Shown: positions 1,301 through 27,445, counted from the first letter of the stretch. The stretch is 64,000 bases of DNA from Chara braunii (GCA_003427395.1 BFEA01000012.1:4875676-4939675); one strand, 5' to 3'. Translations and numbers: made by a program. The notes: generated by a model from the letters alone, not told the origin.

Positions 1301-1581
1301 TATAAGAAAAGATCTCAGAAAATGCAAGAATTGACCTAAGTAAAAAAAAAAAATATAGAAAATGCAGGAATTGACACTAACTCCTATGGCTCTAACACGT
1401 GGCGAGCAACTAAAACAACTACCTATCAATCTGAAACTCATACTAAGTAGTGGCCTCACTCAGTCACATGCAAGCCAAACCACAAGGGTAAGCACTCTCA
1501 CCATCCCAAAGTCAACCTGAACAAACAATAGTTCATGATCTCTCAATGATTTAACCCTTTATATCCGACTTACATAAGACA

Positions 1582-2523
1582 TAGGTCAGGCCGCCTGAAC
1601 TTACAGAACAGCTCAACTTAGCCAGGCCTAGAGTCAGAATACCTAAGCTTATAGAGCGTTCTGACTTGACCAAATATACACAAAAAGAGGGCACAACTAC
1701 TTTTCTCTTCTTTGGGCACATGACTAGACCACTCTAGTCGCCCTAGACTGTTTGAAGTATCCAAGTTATATATACTTATCTTTACCTTTGTCTTCTAAGG
1801 TTGCATATGAATGAACTAACTTAAGTTCAGCCTGCCCCAGTTTACCATCCATTCTATTCTTAGTTGTACTTTCTTCAAGTTGTGATACGGCTATAGTCAG
1901 ACCACCTACACTTATAAAACAGTCTGATTAGCTCGTTCTTAGATAGAGTAGTAATAAAGTATAGCCAAGTTATAACCATTGGGTTCCAACATGTGCGAGG
2001 CTTTGAGCCAGATCCCATGAACTTACAGAAGGGTCTTAACTCTCAGCCAGATTTGTTTCTATCTGAGCCATTATGTGTGTGACATCGAGTCAAACCCCCT
2101 AAACTTACAGAAGGGTCTGCCTCTTTGCCAAGATTAATTCTTCATAATAAAGAGCAGGAAGAGACTGAGTCACCTGAACTTAAAGAGCAGCTCGGTCTCC
2201 TCATTCAGAAACCAAAGAAACAAGTAAAATCCCAATGAAAACAAAGCAACCCAAGGCACCAAAACTTATTGAGCGCCCTGAGTCCCTGAAGATCAAACAC
2301 AATCAAAACTCCTCACAAGTCAGAGCAGTCAGGCCACCTGAACTTACAGAACAGTCTGACCCTCCATACAAACCATAGCACTGGATCTCCCGAAACTTAT
2401 GGGGACATCCCAGCCTCCAAAGTAATCAGACCCCCTAAACTTATAGAAGGGTCCGACTTCTCCATGCACAACCAAAATAAAACAAAGCGTTGGGGCTCCC
2501 CAAACTTATGGAGACTCCCCAGC
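1582..2523. repeat. Array of 11 stem-loops with AACTTA hexaloop (3' LTR copy)
   Basis: Loops start at 1598, 1646, 1909, 2020, 2102, 2177, 2263, 2341, 2394, 2438, 2503; stems differ in sequence but keep pairing. Confidence 0.85.
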
Positions 2524-5477: not shown

Positions 5478-5572
5478 CGGGCTTTCCTCGTATTATATGT
5501 GTGTCGTCCTAGCGCCCGGGCCATGCTAATCTACTCTGTATCGATCAGCCTACTACGAACGCCCCGAAGGGC
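5478..5572 (-). pseudogene. U6: Diverged near-full-length U6 snRNA copy A in LTR (paralog 25720-25814)
   Basis: Minus strand GCCCTTCGGGGC...CGATACAGAGTAGATTAGCATGGCCC...GACAC. Confidence 0.75.
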
Positions 5573-5900
5573 TTACCTCCGGCAGTGCCCCATGGAGCCA
5601 AAGGCGGTGCGCAACTCGTTTTTCCAAATGCACCGGGCCCTACTTCTCGCCCGGGTTCGGTCCTCCTCCCCCAATTCTATTGCCCTGGCTCTCCGACCAG
5701 CGCCGCTTCCCCGCTTACCTCGTCCGGTTCATGCCCGGACTCACAAAAACTCTGCAGTGGCCAAAAGCTGGCCCTTCCAACCTTCTACGTCCGGCCACAC
5801 AGCAGTGCGGCATATTGTCGCGGCGGTACTACCGCAAGACCCCTCCCCCGCTTTTTACCTTCACGTACCTGGCGCCAACTATGTCCGGGTTCCTTTCCAA

Positions 5901-5966
5901 CCCTTACGCAGGCGTCATACTAATCTTCTCTTTATCGTTCCAATTCTAACGGATGTCCAGAAGGAC
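5901..5966 (-). pseudogene. U6: U6 snRNA copy B in LTR, 5' two-thirds (paralog 26143-26182 has a 26-bp deletion)
   Basis: Minus strand GTCCTTCTGGACATCCGTTAGAATTGGAACGATAAAGAGAAGATTAGTATGACGCCTGCGTAAGG. Confidence 0.85.
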
Positions 5967-6104
5967 CGGGCCGGGGTAGCGCCTCGTGGCGGCACCAAAG
6001 GCCGCGCCGCCTGTCTAACCCCCACAGTGCTATTGCTCCACTTTCTTTTCTTAGCCCCTTTTGCATGCGCTTGCTCCCCTTTCCGTCCGGGTTCATCCCC
6101 AGAC

Positions 6105-6183
6105 CTACGGGTATCAGTCGGCATGCAGCGGCCAGGCTAATCCTCTCTATATCCTTCCAATTTTAACGGATGTCCCGAAGGAC
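6105..6183 (-). pseudogene. U6: U6 snRNA copy C in LTR (paralog ~26322-26399)
   Basis: Minus strand GTCCTTCGGGACATCCGTTAAAATTGGAAGGATATAGAGAGGATTAGCCTGGCCGCTGC. Confidence 0.85.
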
Positions 6184-9100
6184 ACAGCCTGAGCCGCAGG
6201 GATAATCTGGCCCTAGGCAGTTCGGGACCTTTGGCTTGGCTTCCCGCGGCCCTACCATCCGGGTCCGGCCTTCAGTTCAACAGTTCGGTGATGTACCCAC
6301 TGAACTAGGCTCTTGGGTGTCAGCCACACCCATGGCACCGTGTCCCAGACAAAACGGAGTTGGGCGCAACTCTGGCGCAACCACGAAAACAGTTTGCAAG
6401 TGCACTTCGGGCAAACCCTGCGGATACAACATACTCCACGTGCGATTTCACGCCCACCTACGGTCGTGAGATAAAATTTAATAGTATTAAAACTTCAAAA
6501 TAAATCATATACATATAAGAACTGCAATGCACGCAGTAACTAGGCGAAAGTTGCGGCCCCCGGGGTAACAAAAGGCGAGGGGGATAGTCCTACCTACCCA
6601 TCAACCCCTCGAGCCTTTTCGCCGCGCTCCTCCACTCCTTTGTCGCATGCCGTTGGCTTCGATCCATGCATCTGCTGCGTATCAGTCTGGTGCTGTAACC
6701 TATAGGGCTAAGCCCAAGCCTGGTACCAGCAGGCCTGAGTCACCTAATAAAGAGGTAGCCCCCGACCTTTTGTGGCCAAAGGAGCCGCCCCACGCCATTC
6801 CCTGACCCGCACTCACACATATGACCATAAAAAAGCCGCGCCAACCTCCCGGCTGTGCCGCGGCTACCCTTACCCGACCGAATCCATCAGGTCCCATCAT
6901 TTGGATGCCGCGTAAGTCCGCACCGGCTCACTAGACCGTCCATCGTACCACGTGGAACCAATGAACACTCATAGGCTAATCAAATCAAGACAAAAATGAC
7001 ATATGCTGACCAAAATCCACGCCACGTCTACCAGTGTAACCAAAATAAGGAAAAAATCACGCGCGCCTCAAACTTGAGTGCCCACGCACTTTTTACTCTA
7101 GTCACCATAAATTACAGACGCGGCCGCGCCTAGTGTGACATACTTAAACTTTAAACCAAACTGTTTTCTGTCATTTGCAAAGACCAGGGCGGATACCCTT
7201 GTAAGGGTATTCGCGCCGACAGCTTACCGGACCACATTAAGCGATGTCCCCGTCGCTTCGCAGGATCAAAAGCTATCAATTCAACCACAATCCCAAAATG
7301 CTGACGAGCAGGGTACCAATCCGATTAGCCGACAGACCCAGGGTTGAGGCCTCCAATAATCCATGCCAAACACAACTTTATGCTGCCAGGATTCTAACCT
7401 GGGTCTCCGTCGCCCTGACACTCGGACGTCGGAATACTCCTCACTGTACTACAGCATAAGCTCCATTGGATCTCTCACCGTCCTCTTCCCTGTGCCCTAG
7501 ACAACCGTCGGCTTCTCGTTGTGTGCCCCTAGCCCTTTCCCTGGAAACCAAGTCGTGACTAGGGGCGCGGGCCCTAACTGAGACCTTCGAAGGCATTCTC
7601 TCGCCTTCATCTCAAAAATCTTCACATTAACACACGTAGCCATACCACATAGACTCTCACATAAGCTTTCCTGCAGTCTAGTACAGGAAGACCAGGTCTT
7701 CATCTTGGCCCACCATAGTCTGGGTGATCATTCTAGATCTACGGCCCACCGCATTGTTATTTCAGCGGTAGTGTCTTCCAAGGTTGCGCCACGATAGGCT
7801 GTTCCCGATAAGCATTCAATCAGGACTTCCTCAAAAGACTCATATGACTCGACTCTTATCCCAAGCCTCTCCGCAGGAGTAAAACCCTCCTAGGCGTTCA
7901 CGCCCCTTTAAGTTTTTACCCCCTTGGCCAGACGCAGGCCCTCTGCTCAGGTTGTGCCAAACAGCGGCCAACACTAAGGGTTGCGCCTTAGTGATACTAG
8001 TTATACCCCTGGCTGGGTCTTTTATAAATGTCCAAGATTGGCACAAGCGGCCGGGCGGTGTGTCGCAACAATACAAGCCTATTGCGGGACTACGCATAGG
8101 CCTGTCGTACATAAAGGTATTTACCAGTCTCTCTGTGGGACCACACAGAGGAAACACGACAACCTCTCCATGATCACAAAACAAAATCACCACCTGGTTC
8201 ACAAAGTCGTGGTCTCCCAGCTTGATCAGAGCAAGAAAGTCACACATCTTGATGACATCTCTTAAAACACACCATTTGCGACATCCAAGAATTTCACCAA
8301 TAGTCAAACAAAATTTGGTCTCTCTCGTCAGTCTTTTACTACTCAAAGTCAACCTTCCATTTACCAATCTTATTAACCACCTTATTTATAGAGGTTATAG
8401 AGGAGGTCTTACTTCAATAGGTCTCTCTGTCATCCCTCTCTCTCTAGGATGAATTCTCTCGCGACCTTTTCTTTAACACATCTTCCCTCTCTGAAGATGC
8501 GTCTTCCAAATGGACAACCTTTCCATTCACAGGTGTCACACTCATCATCTGATCCATATAAAAAGACCAACTTATGGGTCTTCTGCACAACTCAACAATA
8601 GAACACTCACCATACAAATGTTCCGGATCCTCACATCCTCTCACAAAACAGACTGCGCTTCCTTGCCTTATACTCAGCCCTCTCATCTGCCCATGGGCAG
8701 ATCGCACGAGTATACCGGCGAGTAGACAGTTCACATTCATCCAGATTCACAAAGCACAAGATACATCAAGCATTTTCTTGCGCATATTTCACACCAAACC
8801 ATCATCCATCAAGCCAGGACCACACAAGTGAGTGTGAGAGTGATCGTCATATATAACAAGTAGTCCCCAAAAAAGGTCTCAATATAATGTACACTCAGGG
8901 ATAAAATATCCGACATCAAATACCTCCAACATACACTCAAGGGCAGAACGCCCCATACACAAATGTCCCCAAATCGTAACCCACTCAACTCACTCAAAGC
9001 CACACTCACAATGATGTCGTCCTCAAAGTACAAGTTGGGTTTGTCTCTCGAAGATCAGGGTGTAGGCCACCTCAGTATGTACAGGCCTCATCTACCATGT

Positions 9101-9235: not shown

Positions 9236-11920
9236 TCAATCCTGATCGCTCATCTCCTCCTGGTTTTACCTATATAGTTGAGCCCTACCCCCATCTGCAG
9301 ATCTCTCTACTCTCCTGCCATGTCTATCATCCATCCTGCCTCCTTCCTCTGTAACCTTCCCTTTAGCCTTGTCCTTAAGGAACTCAGAACACTGCAAGGC
9401 TCGATGCCCCTCCTTTGTACAGAAGAAACAGGACGTATCGAACCACTTTCTGGACCTCTTCTTTCCTCTCTGAGACCCTGACGACGATGGTGCTTCGCTA
9501 GCCTGCCTGCTCAGCTCATGGCTCTGAGGCATATCCAAAGGCTCCTCTCGTATCTCCACCTCCTCGGTACTCAGTCCAGGTTGGTCCTCAATCCCCTCTG
9601 GCCCGTACTCAGGTGTGCCCAACTGCTGGAGCCCGCCCTCGATGACACCCTCCGCCTCAATTCCCATCTCTCTCTCGAGAGGCTCCTCTATCCTCTGCTC
9701 AGGCGAAACTCGCCTCCTCCTGCATCGAGTGCACTGCCTCAATGAGCTCGTCCATAGATCCCTCTGTTGAGCCCTGAGCTGGCTCACTACTAGATGGTGG
9801 TAGCCCCTCCTCAACTGCCGGCCCACCGCTGCTATAGGTAGTGTCGCGAGCTCAGTAGGGGCTCTGAACTCGAAGGCCTCTCTCTCTGCCTCCCTCTGGG
9901 CTCTCGCCTCCTCTGGCTCCAGGATAACTCTCCCCATAGGTGGCTCCTAGCAAGTCTCTGCTGCAGATGGTTGTCCTGGCAAACCATGTCCTGGCTGCTT
10001 CTGCTCTCCCTGCCGGCTGCTCTCCGGCTTGTCCGCCCTTCCCTGAGATCGTTGCCTCATGCTCTCGATGATAGCTGCCTGGCTGGCCACCAATGCCCTG
10101 AGTTCCTGAATTTCCATCTCCATAGCCTCCAGGCGTACTCCATGGCTTGCTTCCTTCATCTTCTTCCCTGCCAGATCGCTCTCCAACAACAAGTGTCGGT
10201 CAAAAGTTGTCTTGGCCAGGAACTTGATCTTGCGATCCAACCTTTCTTCTGCCTTCCTTGCCATCCCAAACCTCACTCTGATTGGCGAAGGAAGCTCCTC
10301 TCCTCTACGCTCCCAGAAGTCCCTCCACATCTCTGGGATCTCTGGGGCCTTTGCTGGCTCGTTGGGTAGCTGACCCGAGAGAGCCCCTGCTGCCTCCAAT
10401 CTCTGCCTCTCCTGCTGCTGCTCCGGAAGTTCCCCCGCCGCCTCCAACCTCTGCCTCTCCTGCCATATCTCTTCTATCCTCCTGGTTCTTATTGCCCTCT
10501 TTTCTTCGCGCGTCTCTCCAGCTGACGCTCTTTCCCTCGTGCGGAGGTTGACCCTCTTTGGAATCTCTGTCTCTACCTCCTGCTCCGGTTGGCACGGCTC
10601 CTGGCGCGGCTCTGCAGGTGCTAGCTCCTCCAGGTCTGGGTGCTCCAGGGCATGAGCTGCTAGGTGCCTGTCAATCAAGGTCAAGGCTTCTCTCCTTACA
10701 GATGCCCTCTCTCTCCTTCTTTTTGCCCTCCTCTCTAGCGAAGGAGCCTTTTCTAATGAGGGCAATGGGGCCTCCTCTCTCTGCACCCTCTCCCCTGCCT
10801 GGCGAGTGCTCCCTGGTGCATCCCCAAGTCTCAAACCCACTGCTGGCGTCTGAGGGGGCGTATCCTCTCCAACCTCTATCACTTCCTTCCCTGCACGTCT
10901 CCTATCATCGCCTAGTCCTCTCTCTCGCTGAGTATCCCGGACCTCCTCTCGTGGCATCCCCTCTCGTGGCACCTCCTCTGCCGGTGCCTCCTCTCGTGGC
11001 ACCTCCTTACGTGGCACCTCCTTACGTGGCACCTCCTCACGCGGCGCCTCCTCTGCCGGCTCTCCATGCTCCTCACCCCGAGGCGACGCTCTCCACTGAG
11101 AGATATCCAAATGCGCCTCCAACTCCCTCAAAGGCTCCTCGGACGCTGGCGACTCCCCCTGTGTGTGTGTTGGTGACCTCCTCAATCCACCTTCGGCAAA
11201 CCGATGGAACTCCACTGGTCCCAACCCACACTCAGGGTATGCCCCTCGCTCCTCAGCCTCTGGCTCCGGCTCCGGTTCCTCTTCTCTCCTGGCTAGGGCC
11301 TTCTGTCATCCTCGAGATGGTCTCACCTCCCTGGGCTCAGGGTCCCTCTGCCTCTGACTCCTCTGACGCCTCTCAATTCTGGGCTGAAGGGGCTCTGGCC
11401 GTCGAAAGGCCTCTCTCAGATGTGCCCTGCAGCTCTCCCAGTCCCGGGCCATGTCTCTGACCTGCTTAGCCAGTGCCCTCTCCGCCTTTCTGGTCCAGAG
11501 GGGTAACGTCCTCGCCCACTCATCTCTCAGCGTACCCTGCCCCTGCATGAACCACTCGAAGGCAGGGATAAAATCTGCCACATTTCCAATCTCTAGACGG
11601 ATAGGCCTGCCATCTGGTCCCACAGGCGAGGGTCGCAACTCCTCCATCCTCGTCTTCACCTTCTGCCTCGTCGTCGCCTCCCTACGAATCCTGGCAATGG
11701 GCTCCTCGAACCTGCCTGCTCCCCTCAGTCTCTCGATTGTCTGGGCCACTGTCCAGCCCATACGCCTCGCATGCTCCCAGAAACTGTCCAGGAATAGCTC
11801 GATGTCCCCATCATCGTACACCAGAGTACTCTCTCGATGACGAGGCCCATGCTGCTCATATCCTCCTGATGCCCCCAACGGCCTCCGAGGCGGCCGTGTC
11901 CCCCTCCCTCCTCTTGGCAT
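9236..11920 (-). pseudogene. Extra ORF downstream of integrase, Gag-like with CCHC zinc knuckle
   Basis: ORFs 11306-12004, 9947-11224 and 9266-9937 separated by single stops/frameshifts; ATG at 11920 after an acceptor at 11943-11944; CFFCTKEGHRALQC; EVPRE pentapeptide repeats. Confidence 0.75.
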
Positions 11921-12084
11921 GGCTGTCTTCGTAAAGTCAGACCTGCACAACAGGCGAAGGAGACAACAGACACATATTGGGGTAAGCAAACAGGTGACAA
12001 TCAAGCAAGCTCAAACCTGACCATACTCATGCAGCATACAACCTATCCGACCTACATAACCTATCGCTTCTAGTCTAGAGGTAG

Positions 12085-13801
12085 TCAAATCGTCTCTCTT
12101 ACCTCTTCTCTCGCCACAATTTTTTTCAATCGCGTTCCAGATACCCAATCCTTCCACTCAGTCCCATTCAATTTCTCGATCTCGTACGCTCCGAAGTCTC
12201 CAAACCGTACGATCCGTAGGGACCTAACCACCTCTTATCAAGTTTCCTAGACCACTGTTTTTCCAACGATGAATCGTAAAGAAGCACGACGTCCCCAACT
12301 GCCAGAGGTACTTTCCTCACCCGAGCAGACTGATCCCATCGAGTCTTATCATCCATACGGTTTCTAGCCACTTGATCGGACGCCTCCTGGATCCTTTCCT
12401 CTATCGCTCCTATCTGTCGCGCCCGAATGTCGAGCAATTCCTCAAAGGACAGGTCGAGTTCCATATCCTGGCGCCTCCAAGTTTTAAAAAAACTCTCGAT
12501 AGGGAAGGTGGCGTGTCTTCCGTACCACAGCGTCGTAGGTGCGTACTTGGTGGATCTTTTCACTGTAATGTTATCGACAAAGAATGTTGCCCCAGGTATC
12601 TTGGCCATTTATTAGGCCTGCCTTCGGTCCACTTAACCAGGAGGCTCGTAATGGTACTATGTCCTCTCTCTACGGGAGCATTTGTCTGGGGGTGCGCGGC
12701 CGTGGTGTAGTTAGCTACTACTCCATAACTTGATAACAACTTCTGCACCTCCTGACAAGTAAATTCCGATCCCCTGTCCATTACGAACTCCCTGACGAAA
12801 GGATAACGTAGGTAGTACTCCTCGATGCAGCTAACCAAGACTGAACCGGTCTTGGTACGAAAGGCACGCCCATCTACGAAGCCAGATAGATTATCGCGCA
12901 CATCGAAGATGTAGTTATAGCCATGATCCCCAAGCGACATGAAAAGTAGATCGAGATGCACTACAGCCCCCACTTCTCGCTCTAGCTTTGGATGCAGTGA
13001 CTCTCCTTGTCTTAAACGAGATCTCTCCTGGCAGGGCACGCATGACCGGCAGAACTTCCCAACCATATTCATCATTCCATCCCAGTAGTACAACTCGCTT
13101 ATTTTGGCATAAGTGGCTTGGATCCCTCGATGCCCTCCTGCAATGCCATCATGGAGCGCTGCTACGACGTCAATTTGACGATTCTTGCCACAGACGACTC
13201 TCCTGGGATTCCCTACTTCTCTCCTTACAAAAAGGTGGTCATCCCGCACTAAGTAGCGCTGCAACATCCTCTGAGCCCTATCACTCGCATCCCTGAGCCG
13301 CATTTCGCACGACAGAAGGAGTCCCAGCTCTAGGTAGATCCCATCATACTCTTATGCACGAAAGACCTCCTTAATTTCCCCCTCCTCGAACTCGTCGTCC
13401 TGGCTCTCGGGCACTTCGTCCACATTTCCTGCCGGGTTCAACGAGCCTGACTGGTCGAGGCTTTCCTGCAATAACGTGTTGACGAGGAGATACATTCCTC
13501 CCATCAGGTCCTCATGTCGTTCTACCTGGCCTGGCCCTTCCTCGATCGTCCTTATGTCCTCCACCAGGCTATGCGAGCTGGCCAGCGCTAACTCCATCAT
13601 CCACTGAACATCCTTACTACCCCAGGGATCCTCTTCTTCAAAGGGTTTGAGGACTAGCTCAGCCCTCCGTTCGTACTCACTCGGCGCTTGCCTGATAGGA
13701 TAGCCTATACAGTTCGGTACTCGCGGTGACCACTTGTTGATATGAAGACGGACATCTTCTTCCTGGTCTAGAAATCCATCAATTGGGGGCATATTCTCCA
13801 C
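12085..13801 (-). pseudogene. pol: Linker plus integrase (HHCC, DDE, GPY/F), no chromodomain
   Basis: LHDGIAGGHRG...CRSCVPCQ; HLDLL, MDRGSEF, HPQTNAPVERGH; WLGPY. Confidence 0.93.
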
Positions 13802-13822
13802 CGCCTCTCCTTCCTGGTTATC

Positions 13823-15589
13823 CTAGTTGATACGACTCAGCCCGTCCGCCCGGTTCTTGCTACCAGGAATCCGTTCCAACTCGAAGTTAAACATCCAGAT
13901 GTACGTCAGCCATCTGGCAGCCGTCGGATCCGATGGAACGTAATTCCTCAGAGAGTAGGTCAGGGCGGTCGGGTCCACTCTCAAAATAAACCTCCTGCGG
14001 AAGATGTAGTTCCGGAAGATCCGTAGACAGTGGAGGACAGCAAGGGTCTCCCTTTTGAACTGAGAGTAGTTCCTCTCTGTCGTACAGAGAGTCCGGCTCT
14101 CAAATCGCAAGGGTCTTTCCTTTCCTTCCATGTCTGCCTGAATTAGAACTCCCCCTAAGGCAGTCGGCCCCGCATCCGTTTCGACAATGAAGACTCGTGT
14201 CTTCGTGGCATCATAATCTGGCGCCCCTAATACCAACCCTCCCTCTCGAAACTCCTCCTTCATTCTGGCCACCACCTCTTCTTGCTCTTCACCCCAAACC
14301 CATTCTTGATCCTGACGGACTAGTTTCCTCAGGTGTTCAGTCTTAGCGGCGAAGTTTTTGACGAAGGCCCTCCTAAATCTACACGTACCAAGGAAGCTCC
14401 TGACATCAGTTATTGAGTGGAACGGAACTGGCCACTCAGTAATCTTGTCCGTCTTTTTCACATCCGGCCTTCGGCCCCTCTCGCTGCAGACGAACCCCAA
14501 GATAGTCGCTTCCCTCATGCAATGTCTGGATTTGGCCCCGCTCGCCGTGAGGTTATGCTCCTCGAGCAGGCTCAGGACTTTTTCGAGGTCCTGGATGTGC
14601 TTCCAAACAAAGCGCCTTACCCCTAGCGAGACTTCGTCACTCTCCTTCACTGTCGGCCCCTTCACCGCCAAATCATCGATGTATGGCTGTGTGACATGAG
14701 GGCTGACTGACTGCATAACCCGAATCATGGCCCGTTGGACCATTGCTACCTCGTTGGTCCACCCTTGTGGGGCCACGTTCATGTGGATTAATCCTTGCGG
14801 CGTGTGCATAACCGTCACCGGCCTGTCCGGTGGGTAGACCGGAAACTGATCATATCCTGAGTAAAGGTCTATAAGTGAGATTATAGGCCTTCCAGCACAG
14901 GATTCTGATAGAGTATCCACATTTGGCAGTCCTCCAGCATCCCGTACGGTCACCGCATTCAGCCTCTGCAAATCTTGCACCCACCGCAGCGTCCCGTTAG
15001 GCTTGATGAAACAGAACCACGGGGACGCATACGGCCCACTTGAATAGTCGGCGACGTGCGTACGTATCTTGTTGTCGAGGTAATCCACCACCTTCTTCTC
15101 CTCGTCAGGATTAGGATATCACGCCCCTCGCATGTTCCAAGGCTCGTGTGGCACGGTATGGATGCAGATCATAGGTATTTTGTCCACATCCAGCTTGCCA
15201 CGCTCCTCGTCACTAAACGCATGGGCGTTGTGCCTCCTCTTCATCAACTCCACCATCAATGTCCGCTCCTGAGGCAGTAGGAAGTCGGGCTCCCTTATAA
15301 TCAACTCCCCTTCATTCCCTTCGTTGATACGACATGGTCCTGCTAAAGCACTCTCCCTCATTCGTCGTATCAACCCTCGTTCCCTCTCGTAATATGCTTC
15401 ATCATCCTCTGTAACGAGGACGGGAACCGGGCGACACTTCTTGTCTACCGTCTTGTACCGCCTTTGGGAACCCTGCTTGAGCCATCCCCTAAAAAAGGCC
15501 GACTCACAGATTGCGCCTACGCGGACGCGGGGTTCCTCCTTTCGTCCGGAAGACGATATATCAGCTCCAATCTCCCCCCCTCGGGGCAT
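13823..15589 (-). pseudogene. pol: Reverse transcriptase and RNase H (frameshifted)
   Basis: PYASPW, IDLYSGYDQ, PQGWTN, YIDDL, ETDAG, ERNYSQFKRETLAV, NRADGLSR. Confidence 0.95.
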
Positions 15590-15597
15590 TTTAGGAC

Positions 15598-17166
15598 CTA
15601 CTCCCTCAAGGCTTGGATGACATCCGTATCCGCCATCTCATGTGCGGCCACCAAGTCCATGGCCTTCCCGACGTCCGATAGGCTAAGGAAAAACGCTTTC
15701 ACCTCCTCTTCTCCTTCCGGCTCTGCCCGAAGCCTCCTGCACTCGCCCTCCGACTCTTCGATCGTGAAGGATCCTGGGTTGGGCCGGTTCCTTATACTCC
15801 TTGGTCTTGTGTTTCTGCAGGTAATTATTTCGTAATTCCCGCAGGCAGGGTCGCATAGGAGGAGAATTAACGTCCCATCATGCTTATTGAACATCACGGT
15901 CTCCGTCCTACTCAGGAATGACCTCCCTAGGAGGATTCCGTGATCCACGTCTGGCATAATGAAGAAACAAGCCCGGGCCTTCACCTTTCCAACCTCAATG
16001 AGTACATTCAAGGCTGTCCCACAAAATACGGCCTTGCAGCTGGCTCCGTGGAGAATACCGCAGTCAGAACGGTCTATATCTAGCCCGAATCTGATCGCGT
16101 CCTCCTCTCGGATAATGTTCATCTCCGCCCCAGTGTCCACCATTGCTGCGCACTTGGAACCCTTCACCACCAAATTCACCGTGCCGCAGGCTACACACTT
16201 CCAGTCCATTTTCGTACCCGACTCCGCCCACTCAGCCTCCTTGGGCAGGATCGTACCCAGATGGACATTGGGCACCAGGCACCGCGACAATCTCCCCTTT
16301 AGTTCATCGCGGAGCCGCGGGGCCGACGATAGGATTTCCTTCAGGGTCATGAGGTCATTATGCCCTTCCAGTAGCCGGTCGATCACTTTCTCTACGTCAA
16401 ATCCCTCTTCCAACCGAACCGCGTACTTCTTCCTTTTGGGTGGTCCGTCACATATGACCAACTCGGCCTCTCCCCTGGTCCCCTTTTTCCTTGCCCGCTG
16501 CTCCGCTCTCTGATCCTCTTCTCGACGCAGCCTCTCGTCTTCTTCCTCTTCATCATCGTCATCCTCTACTTTCACTGCCTCTTTCCTTTTTCCCGGTTCG
16601 GGCTCCCTTCTCGGAGGTTCTTGGTTGGCACTGGCCTTGGCTTGACTTCTCGTTTGTGTTGCCTGTGCAAGCCGGGCCTGCGGAGTGAGGGGTCTCCCCA
16701 TCATTCCCGATTGTGGGCACGACCCCACCACATTTACTCCGGGTCGCCCAGGCGCTGACTCCGGGCCGGAGTCATAGAGGAACACCGTGGGGATGCTAGA
16801 CCTCCATCTCTTTACTTCGTCGCAGAGGTCTACCAACTTCTGCTGGTACCTTCCCACCTTGTTCAGTAGGTCCTCCATCTTCCCCAATAAAACGGATGGC
16901 GATTCCATCCTTCTTTCCTCGTCTTCATCATCCGATTCGATGATTATGGACTCTTCCCTCCTACTTCCTCCACGTGTTCCTTGAGTCACTTCCTCGTCGC
17001 TCCCCACTTCCTCTACCCCAATCGGTGGTTCCTCCTTTTCCTGCCATAGCCTGAACGTGGCAGGGGGTGGCGGCCCGACTGCCGCCCTTCGTTGGGCTTC
17101 CGCTCTCACTCCTCCAAGCCTTCTGTCAATGGCCTCCCCAAACTGATTGTTAAAGTTCCCATCCAT
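15598..17166 (-). pseudogene. pol: pol N-terminal part with aspartic protease
   Basis: AMVDTGAEMNII active-site motif and ILLGRSFL motif. Confidence 0.9.
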
Positions 17167-17199
17167 GGTGGAGGAGATCAGCCCGCTCCTCTCGTCTTC

Positions 17200-18615
17200 C
17201 TATCTTATGTTACAGAACCTTATGGTGTGGCCTTGCTGGTCACAATGTTGGAAGATGGCCGTCCTCCAGTCAAAACGGGGGTTTCCCATACCCCTGACTT
17301 CCCTGATCCCCCTGGCCTTGATACCCCTGGCCTGGGTACCCTTGGCCTTGATTCCCCTGGCCTTGGTTTCCTCGGCCTTGACTATTCCATTGCCCTCCTC
17401 TTCCGCCGCCATTCCTGCCTCGTCCCGTTCCTCCACCCCTCCATCCGTTGCCTTGATTGCCCTGCCCCTGGTTCCCACCTCCAGCCACGCTTCCCTGTGA
17501 ACAGGGAGCAGGTGACGGCGGCGGGGCCACAAGCTGGGCCTGGGCTGCGGGGTAGATGGGTGGCGGCATACTCATTTGTGGTCCGGCTACTGGCGGCGGG
17601 CTACCCCATGGCACAATTGCATTGATCACCGGCCAGGGCCACTGTCCGTAGGAGGGTGCCCCTTCTTGCGAGGGGCCCGCACTAGACGAGGGCGCCGCCA
17701 CACTTGGAGGAGCCGCCGCCACCGCCTGAGGCGCCTGCGCTTTTCCTGATCCCTGTCCGCCCTGCGCCAAATTACGCACTTTGCGCTAGGCCTTCGTCAG
17801 GCGTTGCGGCACCGACTCTTCCTTTTCCCAGAGCTCCTCCTGAACAGCCCCCTCTATCATCGGCTCCGTTCCTTTCACTTGGACAGCCGTTACTACCCTC
17901 CTTTGCACCACCGGCTCTGTCGCATACCCCAGCTGTACCAATACGTCTGTAACAATCCTTGTTACCCCCGGGCTCCCAGAAGTTGTCGCATCTCTTTCCT
18001 TTCTCTTCTGCCTTTGCAGCCGTACCTGACATTGCTCCACCTGGTCCAAACATCCAACTTCCACCCCTCTGTCAATAGTGGCCCAGGTGAGCTTGGTGCT
18101 ACCTCCTCCAAGCCTCGTCAACTCGACGGCCTCCGATGCCATGAGTAGCCCCAGGAAGATGGCGCACTGTGCTTCCTCTGAAATCCCATGGACCTTCCGC
18201 GCCCTCTTCTTAAATTTTTGAACAAAAGCCCCTATCGTCGTAAAACCCTCTTTGCTCATTGCCTCGAGGTCCGCAGTGGTCAACAGTCCATCTCCCAGGC
18301 GGTACTTCCTCTGCATTCCCTCCTTGAATCTTTCCCAGCAACCTTGGGCTAAATCTATAACTTTCTTCACTTTTTGGTGGTAGCTGTGGAGAACGTACTG
18401 GAGAATGAGCTGAAATTTTACAACATCCGACCGCCCGACCAGAGCTTGTTCCACCCGCTCCAGCCATTCTGAGACTCTCTCCCTACAAAAATGGAAGGTA
18501 TCGCGACCTTGGGGATATTGCTCGGATTTCTTTCATGCCTGTCAATAGCCGCGATAAGGTCATCGAGCGTCAGGCCTTTCTTGGGAGCACCTGACGCGTC
18601 GCCGCCCTGCGACAT
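17200..18615 (-). pseudogene. gag: gag (frameshifted): capsid-like region, GNQGQG low-complexity repeat, degenerate zinc knuckle
   Basis: ORFs 18418-18615, 17786-18454, 17270-17779, 17200-17532; FQHCDQQGHTIRFC knuckle; candidate splice acceptor 27 nt before the ATG. Confidence 0.85.
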
Positions 18616-19059
18616 CTTGACAGACTCTTCTCCTCAAACTCCCTGATAAGAGAAAAACAAGCACACCCCTTTATTCAGCATTACACTTTGTCCGGTCTAT
18701 TCCTTCCACTCTACCTAACCTTTACCGCATACTTTACCCAATGCTAACATGATCGTCCTTCATACTTCCCCTAACTCAGGTAGGTAAACTTCCTCACCTA
18801 TACTTAGTCACTCNNNNNNNNNNNNNNNNNNNNNNNNNNNNNNNNNNNNNNNNNNNNNNNNNNNNNNNNNNNNNNNNNNNNNNNNNNNNNNNNNNNNNNN
18901 NNNNNNNNNNNNNNNNNNNNNNNNNNNNNNNNNNNNNNNNNNNNNNNNNNNNNNNNNNNNNNNNNNNNNNNNNNNNNNNNNNNNNNNNNNNNNNNNNNNN
19001 NTATTCACTTCTCATACCCGGATGTCGTTCCACCAGGGACAACGGTAGGCTTTCTGTTA

Positions 19060-19077
19060 TCCCCGGCAACGGCGCCA
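19060..19077 (-). promoter_or_regulatory. Primer binding site, tRNA-Asp(GUC)
   Basis: Minus strand TGGCGCCGTTGCCGGGGA, 18-nt complement of the plant tRNA-Asp 3' end, next to the LTR terminal CA. Confidence 0.93.
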
Positions 19078-19079
19078 CC

Positions 19080-22000
19080 TGTCGAGCGCATCGGTCCGGC
19101 ACCTCATAGGGCAGCACGGGACCCTCCCGGCCGCGTCACGCAGGAGTTTGTCTTAATCCTCGTCGTGAATATACATGGAGCCTCTGCAAGCCGCTCCGAC
19201 CGAGTGCGCCAGCCATACCTCTCGCGAGCCCCTACGACAGGATAGGGCCTACGCGAGGCACGACTTACCTCCACCTTACGGGAGCTGTCACCTCCCTTCG
19301 GTGGGCGTACCCCTGCCGAGCTACCAGTCCACATTACGAAAGCTAATCAGTTGCAATCGCAGAGGTGGACCAGCCGAGGGCGTTTCTCGTTCGTTGTAGC
19401 ATAGGGGGTACGCGCGGTAATACACCTCTATCGGACCCGCACTCGAACCGCCATCTTGGGGGGCTGAAGTCCCAAGCGCGGCCTGTCGTTGGTCGACTAG
19501 GACGTATCCCACACACCACGCGCACACCACTTTACGAACACAAAATTAAAACACACACACACACACGGAACAACACAACACAAACAACGCGACAACTCTC
19601 CTAGCCCCTCGGTAGCCAACCCGTAACTTTCCGGTGCGGAAAACAAATCAGCGTCGCGCGCGAGACTTAGTATAAAACCGCGCGGACGCAGGGCCTACTC
19701 ATATCGACTCGCAATGCAGGCGTACGCAAGCAGTCGCAATGATGGCGTACTATGTACTGCCCATAATCAAGAGGTCCCTCGTGGATCCGAGTACCGCTTA
19801 TGACACTCAAGTGTCAGACTCGAAGTGTCGTGAGGGTCTAATTCTTCACGACATTGCACGGCTGAAGGAATCGTTGTGCAGCCGCCGCGAGACCTCCGGC
19901 CTTTGGTCTGAGTGTCTCGGTAGGCAAGGCAAATAGGCTCTGCACGAGGGAAAATCCCTCCTCTGCAGAGCCTAGGGCTTGGGATGTCCTGGACAAGGAC
20001 CTCGAATCCCGGCCCAGGATCAACGTCCGACTAAGAAAAATTATCAAGAAGCAAAGCAAAATAAACGAAGGAGTCCTCCCTGGGCCTCTCAGTCTTACCC
20101 TCTGAAGTATGCTCTTTGTACGGAGCCCATTAATCCATACAGACATTCACCCTACGCACACCCATGTATATATATATATATAAAGGAGAAAGTATGTGAC
20201 GATCACTTCTCACAGTGTCATTGGGGTCTCTCACAGTCATACGTATATATGTGATCGCAGGCAACCAAATCCAGAATCTGATTCATAGCACATACCTGCA
20301 AATCACATCAACGAGTCAATCGACAGCCCACGCACTACACGGAGTCAACCCCAACTATCTTTAACACTCATACCCCTTGCTTTAGCCATGCAAGCCCCAA
20401 CCTCCTGTCCAACCAACCTTAATTAAATACTCAGTACCTTTCTCAAATGGTCATTCAATAAAAGTCCGGGTGAAACCATAACGAAACAATGAAATCACCA
20501 GGGCTAAAGCCTTTTAGGTTGAGTGTGGAGGGTGAATTGGAATTGAGTCGTAAACCGACGAATCGACAACCGACCTGTTATCAGCGATAACATATGATGA
20601 TCCTCAAGGGATCGAGCTGAGTCTAATCCTGAACTAGAGTCGGACGATCAAGAGGACCTGTAACACATGACAGGTCAATGACCCATTCTAAACCTATAAG
20701 TTCATGAAGAACAATCTCCATATCGTGATCTTACCCAAATCATCTTAGTTAACCATGTCTAAGCCTACCTCTAAACAATATGGTAGTCTTTACTTAGTCA
20801 GAGTGGACAATCAAAATCGTCACCTGTCAAAATATAATCGATCTCTTCTAAACTCAGAAAATTTCGGCAGCGTTTCCCGTAGGAAAAGTATCTTTCCAGA
20901 ATTTATATAAGTCCAGATATGAAAGGCAGAAATAATTTCTAACTCCAAAGAGTCAAACTTATGTCTAACTTCTTGAAATAGCATAAATTTGGGCAGCATT
21001 CCCTTTAGAAAGGGAGACTTTCCAGATTTATACTAAGTTAGAAAGCAGAAATAATTCCTAGTTTTGGAAAGTCAAACTTTGTCTAATTTCCTGAAAAAGC
21101 AGAAATTTAGGCAGCACTTTCTTTAGAAATGGAGGCTTTCGAGATTTATACTAAGTCCGATATGATCTCGAAAGATAGTTCGAGTTCGACTTTAGACAAA
21201 ATTTAATCAATTTCTTAGTTTTGTAAAAATTTNGGNACCACCCCTCTACAAAAGTGTTATGCCAAAATTTTCACAAGGCTACGTCCATAATTTGAAAGTA
21301 ACTTTTGACTTCCCAAAGTCTAATTTTGTCTAACTCCCTGAATTAGCAAAAATTTGGGCAGCACTCCCTCTAGAAAGGGAGACTTCCCAGTTTTTAACTA
21401 AGTCAGATACGAAAAAGGACAAAGTTGATCTTTTGACAAGTCAAAATTCAACTAACTCCTTGGATCTGTAGAAATTTCGGCAACGCTTCCCGTAGGGAAA
21501 GTAGCTTGCCAAAATTTATACAAAGCCAAGTATAAGAAAAGATCTCAGAAAATGCAAGAATTGACCTAAGTAAAAAAAAAAAATATAGAAAATGCAGGAA
21601 TTGACACTAACTCCTATGGCTCTAACACGTGGCGAGCAACTAAAACAACTACCTATCAATCTGAAACTCATACTAAGTAGTGGCCTCACTCAGTCACATG
21701 CAAGCCAAACCACAAGGGTAAGTACTCTCACCATCCCAAAGTCAACCTGAACAAACAATAGTTTATGATCTCTCAATGATTCAACCCTTTATACCCGACT
21801 TACATAAGGCATAGGTCAGGCCGCCTGAACTTACAGAACAACTCAACTTAGCCAGGCCTAGAGTCAGAATACCTAAACTTATAGAGCGTTCTGACTTGGT
21901 CAAATATACACAAACAGAGGGCACAACTACTTTTCTCTTCTTTGGGCACATGATTAGACCACTCTAGTCGCCCTAGACTGTTTGAAGTATCCAAGTTATA

Positions 22001-25000
22001 TATACTTATCTTTACCTTTGTCTTCTAACGCTGCATATGACTGAACTAACTGAAGTTCGGCCTGCCCCAGTTTACCATCCATTTTATTCTTAGTTGTACT
22101 TTCTTCAAGTTGTGATACGGCTATAGTCAGACCACCTAAACTTATAGAACAGTCTGATTAGCTCGTTCTTAGATAGAGTAGTAATAAAGTATAGCCAAGT
22201 TATAACCATTGGGTTCCAGCATGTGCGAGGCTTTGAGCCAGACCCCCTGAACTTACAGAAGGGTCTTAACTCTTAGCCAGATTCGTTTCTATCTGAGCCA
22301 TTATGTGTGTGGCATCGAGTCAAACCCCCTGAACTTACAGAAGGGTCTGCCTCTTTACCAAGATTAATTCTTCAGAATAAAGAGCAGAAAGAGACTAAGC
22401 CACCCGACCTTACAGAACAGCTCGGTCTCCTCGTTCAGAAACCAAAGAAACAAGTAAAATCCCAATGAAAACAAAGCAACTCAAAGCACCAAAACTTATT
22501 GAGCGCCTTGAGTCCCTGAAGATCAAGCACAATCAAAACCCCTCACAAGTCAGAGCAGTCAGGCCACCTGAACTTATAGAACAGCCTGACCCTCCATACA
22601 AACCATAGCACTAGGTCTCACCAAACTTATGGGGACATCCCAGCCTTCAGAGTAATCAGACCCCCTAAACTTATTGAAGAGTCTGACTTCTCCATGCACA
22701 ACCAAAATAAAACAAAGCGCTGGGGTTCCCCAAACTTATGGGGACTCCCCAGCCTTAACGACCCGGTCAATCGTCACACAAAACAAAACCCCATCCTGCC
22801 TTTCCCCAGATGCAGTTCCTTCTAACAATTTGATTTCATGCAGTCAACAAAGCCGAAACTGAAACTTGAACAGACATTCCTTTACGTAGTCTTGTTCAGT
22901 GTCCTGAAAGTCAAACCAAAAATAAAGTAAGGTTGCACGTCATATATTCAATCAGCGATGCAATTAGAGATATAGATAGGGGTTATAATCAGGGTTTATA
23001 GAGGGAAACACAAAAGTTACCTGTTAATTCCCTGCCTCCAGAGCCTCGCCTAGGCTCCGGCAGAGCTCCCGCAATCGGTGGGTGGACTCCCCACATAGTC
23101 TTGATGCGGTCCTACGGGTTGCAATCCCGCCTGCCGCCTTCTCCTCATAACAAAGACTTGACTTGAAGTAAGAATGATAGAAGAAGGAAGTTTAAGACTC
23201 TCAGATGCCAGAGCGGTGCTCTCAAGCTCACTGAAGAGGTCCTTGATATCTTGATTCGCCTGAGGGCCTTGCAATGGCAGCCAATGTGACAACTTGGTCA
23301 ACTCTCTGGGTCAACCTACTGAAGTCAAACTTCTGCTGACTCCTCAGACTTCTGCCCTACCCTTCTTCTTTGCCCAATTTGATCACCTTTCTGGATTTCA
23401 ACAATCCTCCTCATTCTACCCGTGGCCACACAGCTCCTTTCAACAACCCTTTAGACGCAGCAGCGGTAGGCGGCGGGGGTCAACAACAATAACAAGCAGT
23501 AGTGGCCAGCGCAACGGCAGCTGCACACAGTTGGCCGTACAATGCTGCAGCCAACCTTAGTCTATCAGCAACAGTGGCGGCAAGTAGCGGCCGTAGCAGT
23601 AGTCCGTGCGGATACACAGTTCCCGTAGTGAGATGGCCTAGCAAGGCAATGTACACCGCAGCAGCTCCGGTAGCAAGGCGCAGTACGTTCAATAGGACAT
23701 CGTTGTACAACAGACACAGTGCTTTAGCAAACGACACCCGAACTCAGCAATACTGCACATCATAGTAGAACTGGGCACATCGGCGACATAGTACTGTTCC
23801 AATAACAAAATTAGCCTCCGGAAGGGAGCCAGCAACAGTGCTTCTAACCAACTGATGGGCGATAAGGCAGCAAAGCAACTAGACGGAGGGCAGCACCAGC
23901 AGTGTGACCACAGCATATGTCGAACAGAACAACTTGCAGGGAACCACATGCGCACCAAGCAGGCCAGGCAGTGGCAGGGTGCAGACGAGGCAGCCCGCAC
24001 ATCAACACAGCGCAAGGCAGCACAGTCAACTCACGTCGCTGTTGAACCCGTAGACTTCCCTTCACTACCCAGTTTAAACAGGGCGGGCAGCACATCACCC
24101 CCATAGCTTGCATCAGCGGGGTGCAGTGAGACACAGCAACACTTAACAATGCGCAGCGCAAAAACTCAATTGCACACGTAGCAAAGACCTCAGGCTCAAA
24201 GCACGGCGCGTATAGCCACCGCAACAGCACCCCGTTCTCAGCAAGGTATACCGGAAGACCAACAAGACCAGCACCTTGACTCAGCAAAAAGCACGGCAGA
24301 TGCCACCCACGGCTTCCCTGCAGCTCTCCCGTTCTACGACTAGGCAACAGTTAGACGAACTTGCCGTTAAAACCAAGCCAATTCCATCCTCCGTGTAACG
24401 GCCCGTTGGAAGCTGCCTCCTCCCCGCTTGGGGATGGATCTCTCGCTGAGATCGGGCCAGAGGCACACTGTAGAAGTCGCCCTGTTCTTTCCGCTTGTCA
24501 GGTACGTACCTCCCACCTCGTCTTTTTTTTTTCTTCTACGTATCCGACGTAGAGACCCCGCCAGATTCACTCCCCTCTCAGAGGGGTGTGCGGCACAACT
24601 CCCGAGAGGTAAAACCTCGATCTCCCTCTTTCTCCTCCCTCCCCGTTTGCTGCTCGTCAAAGCTCCCCCAGCGCTCAACGGTATCCTGGCCAAGAGGTAA
24701 ATCTCCAACCCTCGATGCACCGCTACACTACTCCCGTCAATAGGATAAGCAAAATCGAATGAATCTACCGCTGGATTACGGATAGGTTCATTATCTCAAA
24801 TTAGCATTCCCCCCCTCTGCGCACTTTCTTTCTCATCTAAACTCTGAATCTACTAACCCAATAACAGAACTGCCCTCACCATACTATTCGCCCTAGACTA
24901 AGACCTTAACGTAGAGTTCCCCTTTGTCGAAATCGGTCAAGGAATCGGTCGTTTCGACAATTTTCCTCCTTCTCCCGCCATAGTCACTATGCAATGCTTT

Positions 25001-27445
25001 TCTCGGCCAGCTCATAATCTACTAACTCTTCGCTGATTCTGACTTCGGAATCGGGGTCGCCACGTATGAAAACCCCCGATCCAAGCCCTTATTCGCCCAA
25101 ATCCGCCCTCCAACTAGTGAGTTATACGTTTTCCTTCCTCCTCTCTCCTCACTCCGCCATATCCCGGCGCAGTCGGTTTCTCACTAACTCCCTACTCTGT
25201 TGTTCTAACACTAAAACTGACTCTACCCGTGGGTTCGCCCGGGGTGAAAGCCCCAAGATTGCCCCTTCCCCCGCCCGATTCCGTGAAGAATCACGCGGGT
25301 TACCCTCTTTCTGCTGCACCCCCTACCATCTCCCCGCCATACCACCTTTTGCATGCACCCGACGCCCGCTGTCGTCCGGGTTCATCTGTTCCTTTCAGCC
25401 TTCTCGTTGTCCGCTGTTCGTCGCCCCTTCACCCAACACCTGCCATGTGGCACACCGCTCCCCTCCTACCTGCTATACCACCCAGCTCAAACGCCCGCCA
25501 CCGCCCTGTCGCCTTAGCCCACCACCCACCATTCATCACTGCCTAACGCATCGGGCACGATATACCGTCCCGGTTCGTTCACTCTCCCCACCTGCTGCGC
25601 CCGCCGGCTCGCCTCTCGGCCCTGCCTTCCCGTACCCGGCGCTCATTGCCCCACTGTGCCAACACTTCACGGCTCGACGGCGTTTGGCTGTAAAAAAAAA
25701 GAGAACAACGCTCGACCGTCGGGCTTTCCTCGTATTATATGCGTGTCGTCCTAGCGCCCGGGCCATGCTAATCTACTCTGTATCGATCAGCCTACTACGA
25801 ACGCCCCGAAGGGCTTACCTCCGGCAGTGCCCCGTGGAGCCAAAGGCGGTGCGCAACTTGTTTTTCCAAATGCACCAGGCCCTACTTCTCGCCCGGATTC
25901 AGTCCTCCTCCCCCAATTCTATTGCCCTGGCTCTCCGACCAGCGCCGCTTCCCCGCTTACCTCGTCCGGTTCTTGCCCGGACTCACAAAAACTCTGCAGT
26001 GGCCAAAAGCTGGCCCTTCCAACCTTCTACGCCCGGCCACACAGCAGTGTGGCATACCGTCGCGGCGGTACTACCGCAAGCCCCCTCCCCCGTTTTTTAC
26101 CTTCACGTACCCGGCGCCAACTATGTCCGGGTTCCTTTCCAACCCTTACGCAGGCGTCATACTAACGGATGTCCTGAAGGACCGGGCCGGGGTAGCGCCT
26201 CGTGGCGGCACCAAAGGTCGCGCCGCCTGTCTAACCCCCGCAGTGCTATTGCTCCGCTTTCTTTTTTGAGCCCCTTTTGCATGCGCTTGCTCCCCTTTCT
26301 GTCCGGGTTCATCCCCAGACCTACAGGTATCAGTCGGCACGCAGCGGCCAGGCTAATCCTCTCTATATCCTTCCAATTTTAACAGATGTCCCGAAGGACA
26401 CAGCCTGAGCCGCGGGGATAATCTGGCCCTAGGCAGTTCGGGACCTTTGGCTTGGCTTCCCGCGGCCCTACCATCCGGGTCCGGCCTTCAGTTCAACAGT
26501 TCGGGGATGTACCCACTGAGCTAGGCTCTTGGGTGTCAGCCACACCCACGACACCGTGTCCCAGACAAAACGGAGTTGGGCGCGGCTCTGGCACAGCCAC
26601 GAAAACAGTTTGCAAGTGCACTTCGGGCAACCCCTGCGGATACAACGTACTCCACGCGCGATTTCACGCCCACCTACGGTCGTGAGATAAAATTTAATAG
26701 TATTAAAACTTTGAAATAAATAATATACATATAAGAACTGCAACGCACGCGGTAACTAGGCGAAAGTTGCGGCCCCCGGGGTAACAAAAGGCGAGGGGGA
26801 TAGTCCTACCGGCCCATCAACCCCTCGAGCCTTTTCGCCGCGCTCCTCCACTCCTTTGTAGCATGTCGTTGACCTCGATCCCTGCATCTGTTGCGTATCA
26901 GTCTGGTGCTGTAACCTATAGGGCTAAGCCCAAGCCTGGTACCAGCAGGCCTGAGTCACCTAATAAAGAGGTAGCCCCCGGTCTTTTGCGGCCAAAGGAG
27001 CCGGCCCACGCCATTCCCTGACCCGCACTCACACATATGACCATAAAAGGCCGCGCCAACCTCCCGGCTGTGTCGCGGCTACCCTTACCCGGCCGAATCC
27101 ATCAGGTCCCATCATCTGGATGCCGCGTAAGTCCGCACCGGCTCACTAGACCGTCCATCGTACCACGCGGAACCAATGAACAAGGTGCTCATAGGCTAAT
27201 CAATTCAATCAAGTTAAAAATGACATATGCTAACCAAAATTCACACCACGTCTACCAATGTAACCAAAAGAAGGAAAAAATCATGTGCGCCTCAAACTTG
27301 CGCGCCCACGCACTTTTTACTCTAGGCACCATAAATTACAGACGCGGTCGCGCCTAGTGTGGCATACTTAAACTTTAAACCAAACTGTTTTCTGTCGTTT
27401 GCAAAGACCAGGGCGGATACCCTTGTAAGGGTATTCGCGCCGACA
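19080..27445 (-). repeat. 5' LTR, 8366 bp
   Basis: Ends TGTCG...CGACA (TG/CA inverted termini); PBS 2 nt inside the 19080 boundary; similarity to the other LTR stops exactly at 27445/7221; candidate TSD ACGGC at 27446-27450. Confidence 0.93.
21812..22753. repeat. Array of 11 AACTTA stem-loops (5' LTR copy)
   Basis: Same array as 1582-2523; restores the AACTTA loop in units 2 and 3. Confidence 0.85.

Follow-up and report, generated by a model that had tools for sequence, protein, structure and literature searches.

The multiple packaging signals described for phage MS2 (TR-like) and for the pregenomic RNA of hepatitis B virus (HBV) are many stem-loops with variable stems and a common motif of loop and 5′-bulge. 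They are proposed to bind many capsid subunits, and are dispersed and degenerate (PMC6281560). A 64,000-nt stretch of DNA from Chara braunii (GCA_003427395.1 BFEA01000012.1:4875676-4939675), referred to as the window, contains a decayed Ty3/gypsy element on the minus strand. Its long terminal repeats (LTRs) each carry 11 near-identical predicted hairpin motifs in 940 nt. As with the MS2 and HBV signals, there are many stem-loops with a shared loop and bulge and variable stems. By sequence comparison the array is real and kept by selection, and it is probably a functional RNA-level array of some kind. Its role is proposed, tentatively, to be that of a multi-site landing pad for Gag or for the capsid-like product of open reading frame 3 (ORF3), which would mark full-length genomic RNA for packaging.

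The retroviral packaging signal Psi is located after the major splice donor, outside the LTR and between the primer site and gag, and contains a self-complementary dimer-initiation loop. It ensures the selective packaging of unspliced RNA (PMC7599994). The Chara array is similar to Psi as a structured RNA past a donor in the 5′ leader and as a candidate Gag site, and would be absent from spliced RNA if the proposed splice is real. It differs in position, as it falls within both LTRs and precedes the primer site by 1.6-2.6 kb, and is thus duplicated at the 3′ end. The loop, UAAGUU, is not self-complementary and does not qualify as a dimer-initiation loop. Psi comprises a few different hairpins, whereas in Chara one motif is repeated and gag itself appears to need splicing. 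Position and loop therefore set the array apart from a classical Psi, but it may work in a Psi-like manner. The packaging determinants of Ty1 and Ty3 show the same order of elements as the Chara locus, and their 5′ RNA motifs are sites of Gag binding and dimerisation (PMC4974528). Ty1 uses short palindromes, however, and the accessible sections describe no repeated hairpin array (PMC4974528).

The array is composed of the following units, each of 33 nt and all within ~940 nt of non-coding LTR.

21815..22752, minus strand: hairpin array of the 5′ LTR, 11 core units
22720-22752, 22655-22687, 22611-22643, 22558-22590, 22480-22512, 22394-22426, minus strand: first six core units of the 5′ array
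22319-22351, 22237-22269, 22126-22158, 21863-21895, 21815-21847, minus strand: last five core units of the 5′ array
1585..2522, minus strand: hairpin array of the 3′ LTR, the same 11 units in the same order
22035..22067 (~22048), minus strand: atypical 12th unit (~1818 in the 3′ LTR), with the same or nearly the same loop and a stem of 5-6 bp, without the bulge register

On the minus strand, each unit has a lower stem of up to nine pairs, one bulged pyrimidine, 3-4 pairs, one of them a nearly fixed C-G, and the loop UAAGUU. Within a pyrimidine run the bulge can be placed in two registers, one base apart, and both score alike; RNAalifold picks a bulged U beneath a 3-bp stem. Units were aligned in 30 rows (alignment A2), drawn from both LTRs and from L030, a 2280-nt public contig that is 80% identical to the array region and represents a third, diverged copy. 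The atypical units and unit 1 of L030, which has a one-base insertion, were left out. Loop positions 1-4 (UAAG) are invariant in 30/30 rows and the sixth loop U is kept in 29/30. The lower stems of different units have a mean identity of 46.5%, with a minimum of 11%.

A sequence-only reading of this DNA had reported 11 copies of the hexamer AACTTA in each array (21812-22753 and 1582-2523). Both counts are correct and account for 22 of the 32 plus-strand copies in the window. The reading took the 11 hexamers to be 11 loops. The number agrees with the 11 core units, but the hexamer at 21845/1615 falls in an arm of the last unit, and units with variant loops had been overlooked (22394-22426 in the 5′ LTR; 1896-1928 and 1633-1665 in the 3′ LTR). 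The closing triplets and outer stems that it listed are present in the array. What it described as an internal loop consists, on the minus strand, mostly of U.G/G.U pairs and one bulged pyrimidine. The spacers, said to be unrepeated, are mostly unrelated, with the exception of a 63%-identical two-unit duplication (~22557-22691 vs 22125-22273). Joints which skip or repeat units are found in DNA contigs, and the number or order of units therefore varies within the family.

In 500 dinucleotide shuffles of the 990-nt array, AACTTA occurs 0.73 times on average and at most four times, in comparison to the 11 observed. The most repeated loop in hairpin register is seen no more than twice in the shuffles and ten times in the array. 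The total of loose hairpins with any loop is not unusual (29 vs a shuffle mean of 21.8, maximum 35), so the signal lies in the common loop and its register. When the window and L030 are scanned with a covariance model, R1, 31 matches reach E 1.5e-4 or better; every one lies inside an array and on the minus strand. Thirty of these are rows on which R1 was trained, the other being the omitted unit 1 of L030 (E 3.9e-7), and the next best match has an E of 0.27. The atypical 12th unit escapes R1, and no unit is found by it in the internal leader of the element.

Pairing is retained in 88.2% of 390 cells of the alignment, compared to 70.4% after shuffling and 26-51% in slid registers. Cells changed on both sides number 78 against 32 in shuffles, and the covariation score of 0.63-0.65 (shuffled 0.31-0.33) was reached by 0/500 shuffles. 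As the rows of the alignment are related, covariation alone is not proof, and the diverged copy provides a separate comparison. At sites which agree in both LTRs, the changes in L030 amount to 1/52 in the loop, 4/62 in the upper stem, 14/147 in the lower stem and 58/320 in the spacers. Relative to the spacers, the Fisher p values are 0.0016 for the loop, 0.023 for the upper stem and 0.019 for the lower stem, and the base-matched expectation for loop changes is 8.6. At majority-paired sites, 9/11 stem changes keep the pair (neutral 0.435, p=0.011), and two further stem changes turn a mismatch into a pair. A hand tally that includes three-way sites counts 15/18 stem changes with pairing kept. 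The L030 units are closest to the unit at the same position in 8/8 cases, one of them tied.

Loops mutating at the neutral LTR rate had been named beforehand as a finding that would speak against a functional array. Between the two LTRs the loops do behave in this way (3/66 vs 22/579), but in comparison to the diverged L030 they are conserved. The stems change faster than the spacers between the LTRs (10/88 and 14/198), and 12/17 stem changes keep the pair (p 0.02). The LTR-to-LTR comparison was rejected as a test of selection, as mostly neutral decay after insertion is expected there. With covariation and the conservation in L030 taken together, the claim that structure and loop are conserved as a selected RNA structure is borne out.

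The distribution of wobble pairs indicates the strand. The 286 stem cells, read on the minus strand, contain 189 Watson-Crick pairs, 65 G.U, 13 A.C and 19 other oppositions. Among majority states, G.U exceeds A.C by 22 to 3 (the three counted by hand), where a ratio of 1.9:1 is expected from composition (p=0.01). Polarised changes outside the units are symmetric (C>T 12 vs G>A 14), so deamination does not explain the excess of G.U. The minus strand is the more stable in 20/24 units with RNA energies and in 13/24 with DNA energies. As the upper stems are foldable on both strands, the assignment rests on the wobbles and on RNA reads. The functional strand had been described as unresolved; it is the minus, element-sense strand by G.U vs A.C (65:13) and by the stranded reads described below. 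The array would act in the sense RNA strand of the element.

The surrounding element has two LTRs and the gypsy order of domains in pol (protease, reverse transcriptase (RT), RNase H, integrase), and its parts are as follows.

20165..27445, minus strand: 5′ LTR, ~7.28 kb, TG...CA
1..7221, minus strand: 3′ LTR, truncated by the start of the window, 94.6% identity to 20215-27445
20147..20164, minus strand: stretch resembling a primer-binding site, beginning with TGG right after the CA
12171..18615, minus strand: gag-pol with protease, RT, RNase H and integrase, interrupted by stops and frameshifts
9266..11943, minus strand: ORF3, following pol, with a candidate acceptor AG ending at 11943, an ATG at 11920 and two in-frame stops in this copy
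23015..23023, minus strand: CAG|GTAACT, a candidate splice donor with the intron beginning at 23020 (3′ LTR: 2791), where RNA depth falls
18615..18660, minus strand: candidate gag acceptor, a pyrimidine tract with an AG that ends at 18643 and precedes the gag ATG at 18615 by 28 nt
22995..23000, minus strand: TATAAA shared by all three copies, 20 nt beyond the donor, a possible TATA box upstream of the array
21788..21793, minus strand: TATAAA found in each LTR ~20 nt beyond the last hairpin; as the promoter it would put the array in U3

The inner end of the 5′ LTR is placed by the CA followed by TGG, as the matching end of the 3′ LTR falls outside the window. The LTRs show 320 differences over 7189 aligned bases. 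No tRNA was matched to the primer-binding stretch, no self-priming complement of it of at least 10 nt is present in the LTR, and no clear purine run precedes the 3′ LTR as a polypurine tract. The origin of the DNA is confirmed by the piece covering RT and RNase H, for which 49/52 homologues (E 1e-50 or better) are named Chara braunii proteins, and by the first piece of ORF3, with 100% identity to part of CBR_g8642.

The array had been placed ~270 nt past the candidate donor and upstream of the primer site. It is measured at 268 nt past 23020, and the TGG lies at 20164. This donor is one of three GT sites with 8/9 consensus matches between 27445 and 18600, and its GTAA is kept in L030. Between the donor and the gag ATG, 59 ATGs fill the unspliced leader. 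The candidate ORF3 acceptor AG at 11943 is 23 nt before its ATG. Gene models of homologues nearly all enter ORF3 at the same acceptor and vary upstream; being predictions, they were not counted as evidence of splicing.

Transcription was followed in two stranded poly(A) runs with the same species label, X7 and X9. A third run, X8, shows both strands in a DNA-like profile and serves as a baseline only. Sense depth over the array is 1.96 in X7 and 2.09 in X9, with 0.0 and 0.17 in antisense, and the array is transcribed at a low level in the sense of the element. A peak is seen just upstream of the donor (47.9 in X7, 130.3 in X9), of which the array depth represents 4.1% and 1.6%, respectively. 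As the X8 baseline falls only to 11-12%, the array is depleted ~3- to 7-fold beyond the loss of similarity. Such a fall would be expected from splicing at the donor or from transcripts that end nearby. Loose read ends at the donor form mixed consensus strings (agreement 0.49-0.57) with no identifiable acceptor and no T run, and there is therefore no sign of a poly(A) site at this point. In X7 and X9, coverage is 1.5-4.0 for ORF3 and 0-0.4 for pol, and the ORF3 reads have the same orientation as those of the array.

ORF3 had been taken for a second Gag-like gene, and its layout agrees with this: the N-terminal part has a predicted capsid-like fold and a CCHC knuckle is present at the end. A basic N-terminus, kept in most homologues, is followed by the predicted two-lobed domain and a long Glu/Arg-rich part. 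In a wide structural search, all of the top 18 matches are Arc or retroelement capsid domains. The best match has a Z of 8.8 and a root-mean-square deviation of 1.8 over 71 residues, with lobes at ~25-100 and 97-175. A Z near 8 is of moderate weight for helical folds, and it is the uniform list of matches that points to a capsid. Pfam gives no match for Gag or ORF3, and no similarity was found by BLAST between ORF3 and the N-terminal piece of Gag. There are 113 ORF3 relatives among 1.84 billion representatives, many of which share identifiers with Chara proteins. In the ORF3 model (11309-11920, minus strand), most matches of the first lobe are to C-terminal capsid domains, and most of those of the second are to N-lobes. 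The lobe order is possibly swapped, although the lobes are similar folds and the model is a weak guide to their order.

Under the packaging proposal, the gag and ORF3 mRNAs would be spliced from the donor at 23020, so that the array and the primer site would both be removed with the intron. The proteins would be made from RNAs unfit for reverse transcription, and a strong signal would be needed for them to find full-length RNA in trans. Lying with the primer site in a region that would be missing from most mature RNA, the array could act as the tag for full-length RNA. The protein would read the loop with its invariant UAAG, the C-G pair and the bulge, and the stems would need only to pair. 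The combination of a fixed loop, C-G pair and bulge on free stems resembles a protein-binding RNA motif, as in the MS2-type signals (PMC6281560). The sequence-only reading is thus supported in part, for the selected structure, its position and the second Gag-like ORF; splicing at the donor, protein binding and packaging are inferred. A complete trans-packaging cycle is somewhat unlikely. In it, all proteins would come from spliced RNAs without a primer site, a capsid-fold protein with a zinc knuckle would be made from a separate mRNA, and an MS2/PP7-like array of eleven hairpins in the LTR would select full-length RNA, unlike described LTR elements.

A number of results count against this proposal. 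Of the five covariation measures, two carry little or no signal: 10 pairs show a two-sided change where shuffles give 10.0, and for further pair types the result is 19/500. The 30 rows are 11 unit types in at most three related copies, from which the structure was itself derived. Selection rests on one outside copy, with a single fully compensatory change between orthologous units. In a fold of the whole array, only 8/12 units of the 5′ LTR close at a probability of at least 0.89, and the opposite strand closes 7/12 at 0.85 or above. X8 shows part of the drop in depth too, which means that the relatives' loss of similarity has a share in it. No RNA splice joint at 23020 is present among the joints listed. 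Reads at least 99% alike to this copy number 0 of 219 in X7 and 0 of 393 in X9, so the RNA stems from relatives and not from this copy. The array is also present in the 3′ LTR, and with a location in U3 or R it would be carried by spliced RNAs as well. The model of 204 residues of ORF3 is moderate (pLDDT 74.6, pTM 0.54), and Foldseek reached a best E of 0.86, with none at 0.001 or better, the dArc1 capsid ranking first.

Nuclear export is another possible use of such a structure, in which a host factor, or ORF3 translated from a spliced mRNA, would multimerise on the array, keep the full-length RNA unspliced and export it. Structured cis elements which release unspliced RNA from the nucleus include the Rev response element (RRE) with Rev, the constitutive transport element (CTE), the direct repeat (DR) of Rous sarcoma virus (RSV), the RNA transport element (RTE) of IAP and the MusD transport element (MTE) (PMC9143442, PMC12786077). 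The nematode element Cer1 of C. elegans employs a spliced 3′ ORF, CERV, for the nuclear exit of its unspliced genomic RNA (PMC10309623), and a multi-copy site near a donor would suit co-transcriptional loading. In the accessible sections, however, the known export elements are single large structures or two copies (PMC9143442, PMC12786077), against 11 units in Chara. The folded part of ORF3 is capsid-like, whereas CERV is without similarity to retroviral proteins (PMC10309623). All of the sequence evidence fits packaging equally well, and a Rev-response-like or transport element is considered unlikely. The loop letters bring to mind a bank of decoy 5′ splice sites, since UAAGU equals the donor consensus from +2 to +6 and could bind U1, thereby restraining splicing or early polyadenylation. 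RSV's negative regulator of splicing (NRS) is such a stem-loop with donor-like letters, matching the consensus at 5/8 positions only, placed ~280 nt past the true donor and most effective at ~278 nt past a donor (PMC3082916). The first Chara loop lies 282 nt past the donor, units match 4-7/9 consensus positions, and 8/24 have G at +1. The NRS, however, is a single copy with a part for SR proteins (PMC3082916), and conservation of the eleven Chara copies does not track U1 pairing. The sixth loop U is outside the donor consensus yet almost always kept, +6 becomes A in two L030 units, and +1 is usually an A paired in the stem. The bulge and the C-G pair have no role in U1 pairing, so the conservation fits a protein site better and a decoy function is very improbable.

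There are two further explanations. If the TATAAA at 21793 is the promoter, the units could be U3 repeats, serving either as palindromic DNA sites of a transcription factor or as an RNA element at the 3′ end. In each LTR this TATAAA follows the last unit at a distance of ~20 nt, and Sirevirus LTRs have palindromic repeats ahead of a conserved TATA box (PMC4728375). Variable-number repeats in plant LTRs or non-coding regions are also known from the tandem arrays of Retand (PMC11963269). These are repeats or palindromes of sequence, in the Copia U3 of Sirevirus and, for Retand, in the interval from pol to the 3′ LTR, and the accessible sections describe no structure-level covariation with a fixed loop (PMC4728375, PMC11963269). 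The Chara element has the gypsy domain order and bulged, strand-asymmetric hairpins, and is not a Sirevirus. A DNA site would not keep its pairing through sequence change, nor favour G.U on one strand. The depth in X7 and X9 does not rise past 21793/1563, the expressed part being upstream of the array, and several other TATAAA motifs occur nearby. A promoter-side role is decidedly unlikely. The units could also be functionless remnants of duplicated palindromes, with pairing produced by template switching and G.U by cytosine deamination. There are traces of unit duplication, the number and order of units differ among relatives, and between the LTRs the loops change at the background rate and the stems faster than the spacers. 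Template switching, however, yields perfect palindromes and not a fixed bulge and loop. Decay is strand-symmetric outside the units and asymmetric inside them, and in L030 both loops and stems change more slowly than spacers, and its units are closest to those at the same position. Neutral remnants are thus largely refuted and have hardly any probability left.

The abundance of the family is of relevance to the packaging proposal. Summed DNA depths, which are not copy numbers, are 33,000-214,000 for the array and the part downstream of it, 146,000-413,000 for the leader, 6,800-13,500 for pol and only 49-4,200 for 2927-6121. The family is very abundant. The array and leader exceed pol several-fold to tens-fold, as expected if copies without pol retain them, which suggests that many relatives share array and leader and that the upstream LTR is specific to a subfamily. 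In summed DNA depth the internal leader after the primer site (19002-20150) ranks first within the element. It is likely common to many non-autonomous relatives, and would be a second candidate cis region.

Rfam has no match to the array, whether 20200-27500 is searched at E up to 5 or the whole window at E up to 0.5, and L030 gave a chance-level match only (E 4.7). Two-core pattern scans of 28 viral stretches and 118 metagenome loci (34/64 parts of the collection) identified one true relative, L030, among the 146 loci. Two other loci, L044 and L092, were rejected as relatives, being 24-nt tandem repeats, and R1 over 100 scanned loci gave three weak matches (E 0.02-0.09). The array was not found outside Chara in these viral and metagenome scans, eukaryotic genomes being outside their scope. 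In the literature covered, mainly open-access papers, no description of this Chara family or array was found.

Little is known of the way in which LTR retrotransposons of plants and algae identify their genomic RNA, and according to a 2025 review the RNA export of plant LTR elements has not been studied directly (PMC12786077). A 33-nt motif in 11 copies with a fixed loop and natural stem variants makes this question accessible to tests with a single short RNA and the two candidate proteins. Should the partner be encoded by the element, this would be a new, specific pairing of RNA and protein like those of MS2 and PP7, and could explain why the LTR and leader sequences far outnumber the pol genes of the family. 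If the trans-packaging cycle is true, it would provide a sequence-specific RNA-protein code for a retrotransposon of the green lineage, and an example of a wider, unnoticed class of same-loop arrays in retroelements.

Other features of the LTRs are separate from the hairpins. A second repeat array is located between the hairpins and the primer site (20859-21533). It contains 5-6 AT-rich units of ~120 bp, 60-82% alike, most of which carry TATAAA and a small predicted minus-strand hairpin. A 693-nt tract (800-1492 / 21030-21722) is identical between the LTRs, two N positions included, where the difference is 4.5% elsewhere; this identity therefore probably reflects assembly collapse, and the tract does not overlap the hairpin array.

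The upstream part of the LTRs contains decayed pieces derived from U6 snRNA, two to three per LTR (25714-25814 and 26339-26399; 5472-5572, 5902-5966 and 6123-6183; all minus strand; Rfam E 2.9e-9 to 6.2e-6). The middle piece has been lost in part from the 5′ LTR through a 26-nt deletion. The pieces look subfamily-specific, given the low DNA depth of that region. A link between U6 and the array was dropped, as the array is family-wide. Cassandra LTRs carry pieces of 5S, which the U6-bearing Chara LTRs recall; no other case of U6-derived LTR pieces was found in the literature covered. A stop-free frame of 454 codons, antisense to the element and of equal length in both LTRs (25018-26382 and 4776-6140, plus strand), overlaps the U6-derived region and has no Pfam match. 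Outside the element are three near-intact U6 copies (39340-39444, 40161-40261 and 48494-48593, minus strand), each ending in an A run, which are probably retroposed U6 pseudogenes.

A separate element with RT matches (28205-30537, plus strand) starts shortly past the 5′ LTR. At 7377-7459 (minus strand), ~160 nt before the 3′ LTR, ARAGORN predicts a tRNA-like structure with an unreadable anticodon, for which Rfam has no tRNA match. A match resembling the type III hammerhead ribozyme is present at 56009-56064 (minus strand), scoring 45.8 bits where the gathering score is 48.5 (E 7.8e-7).

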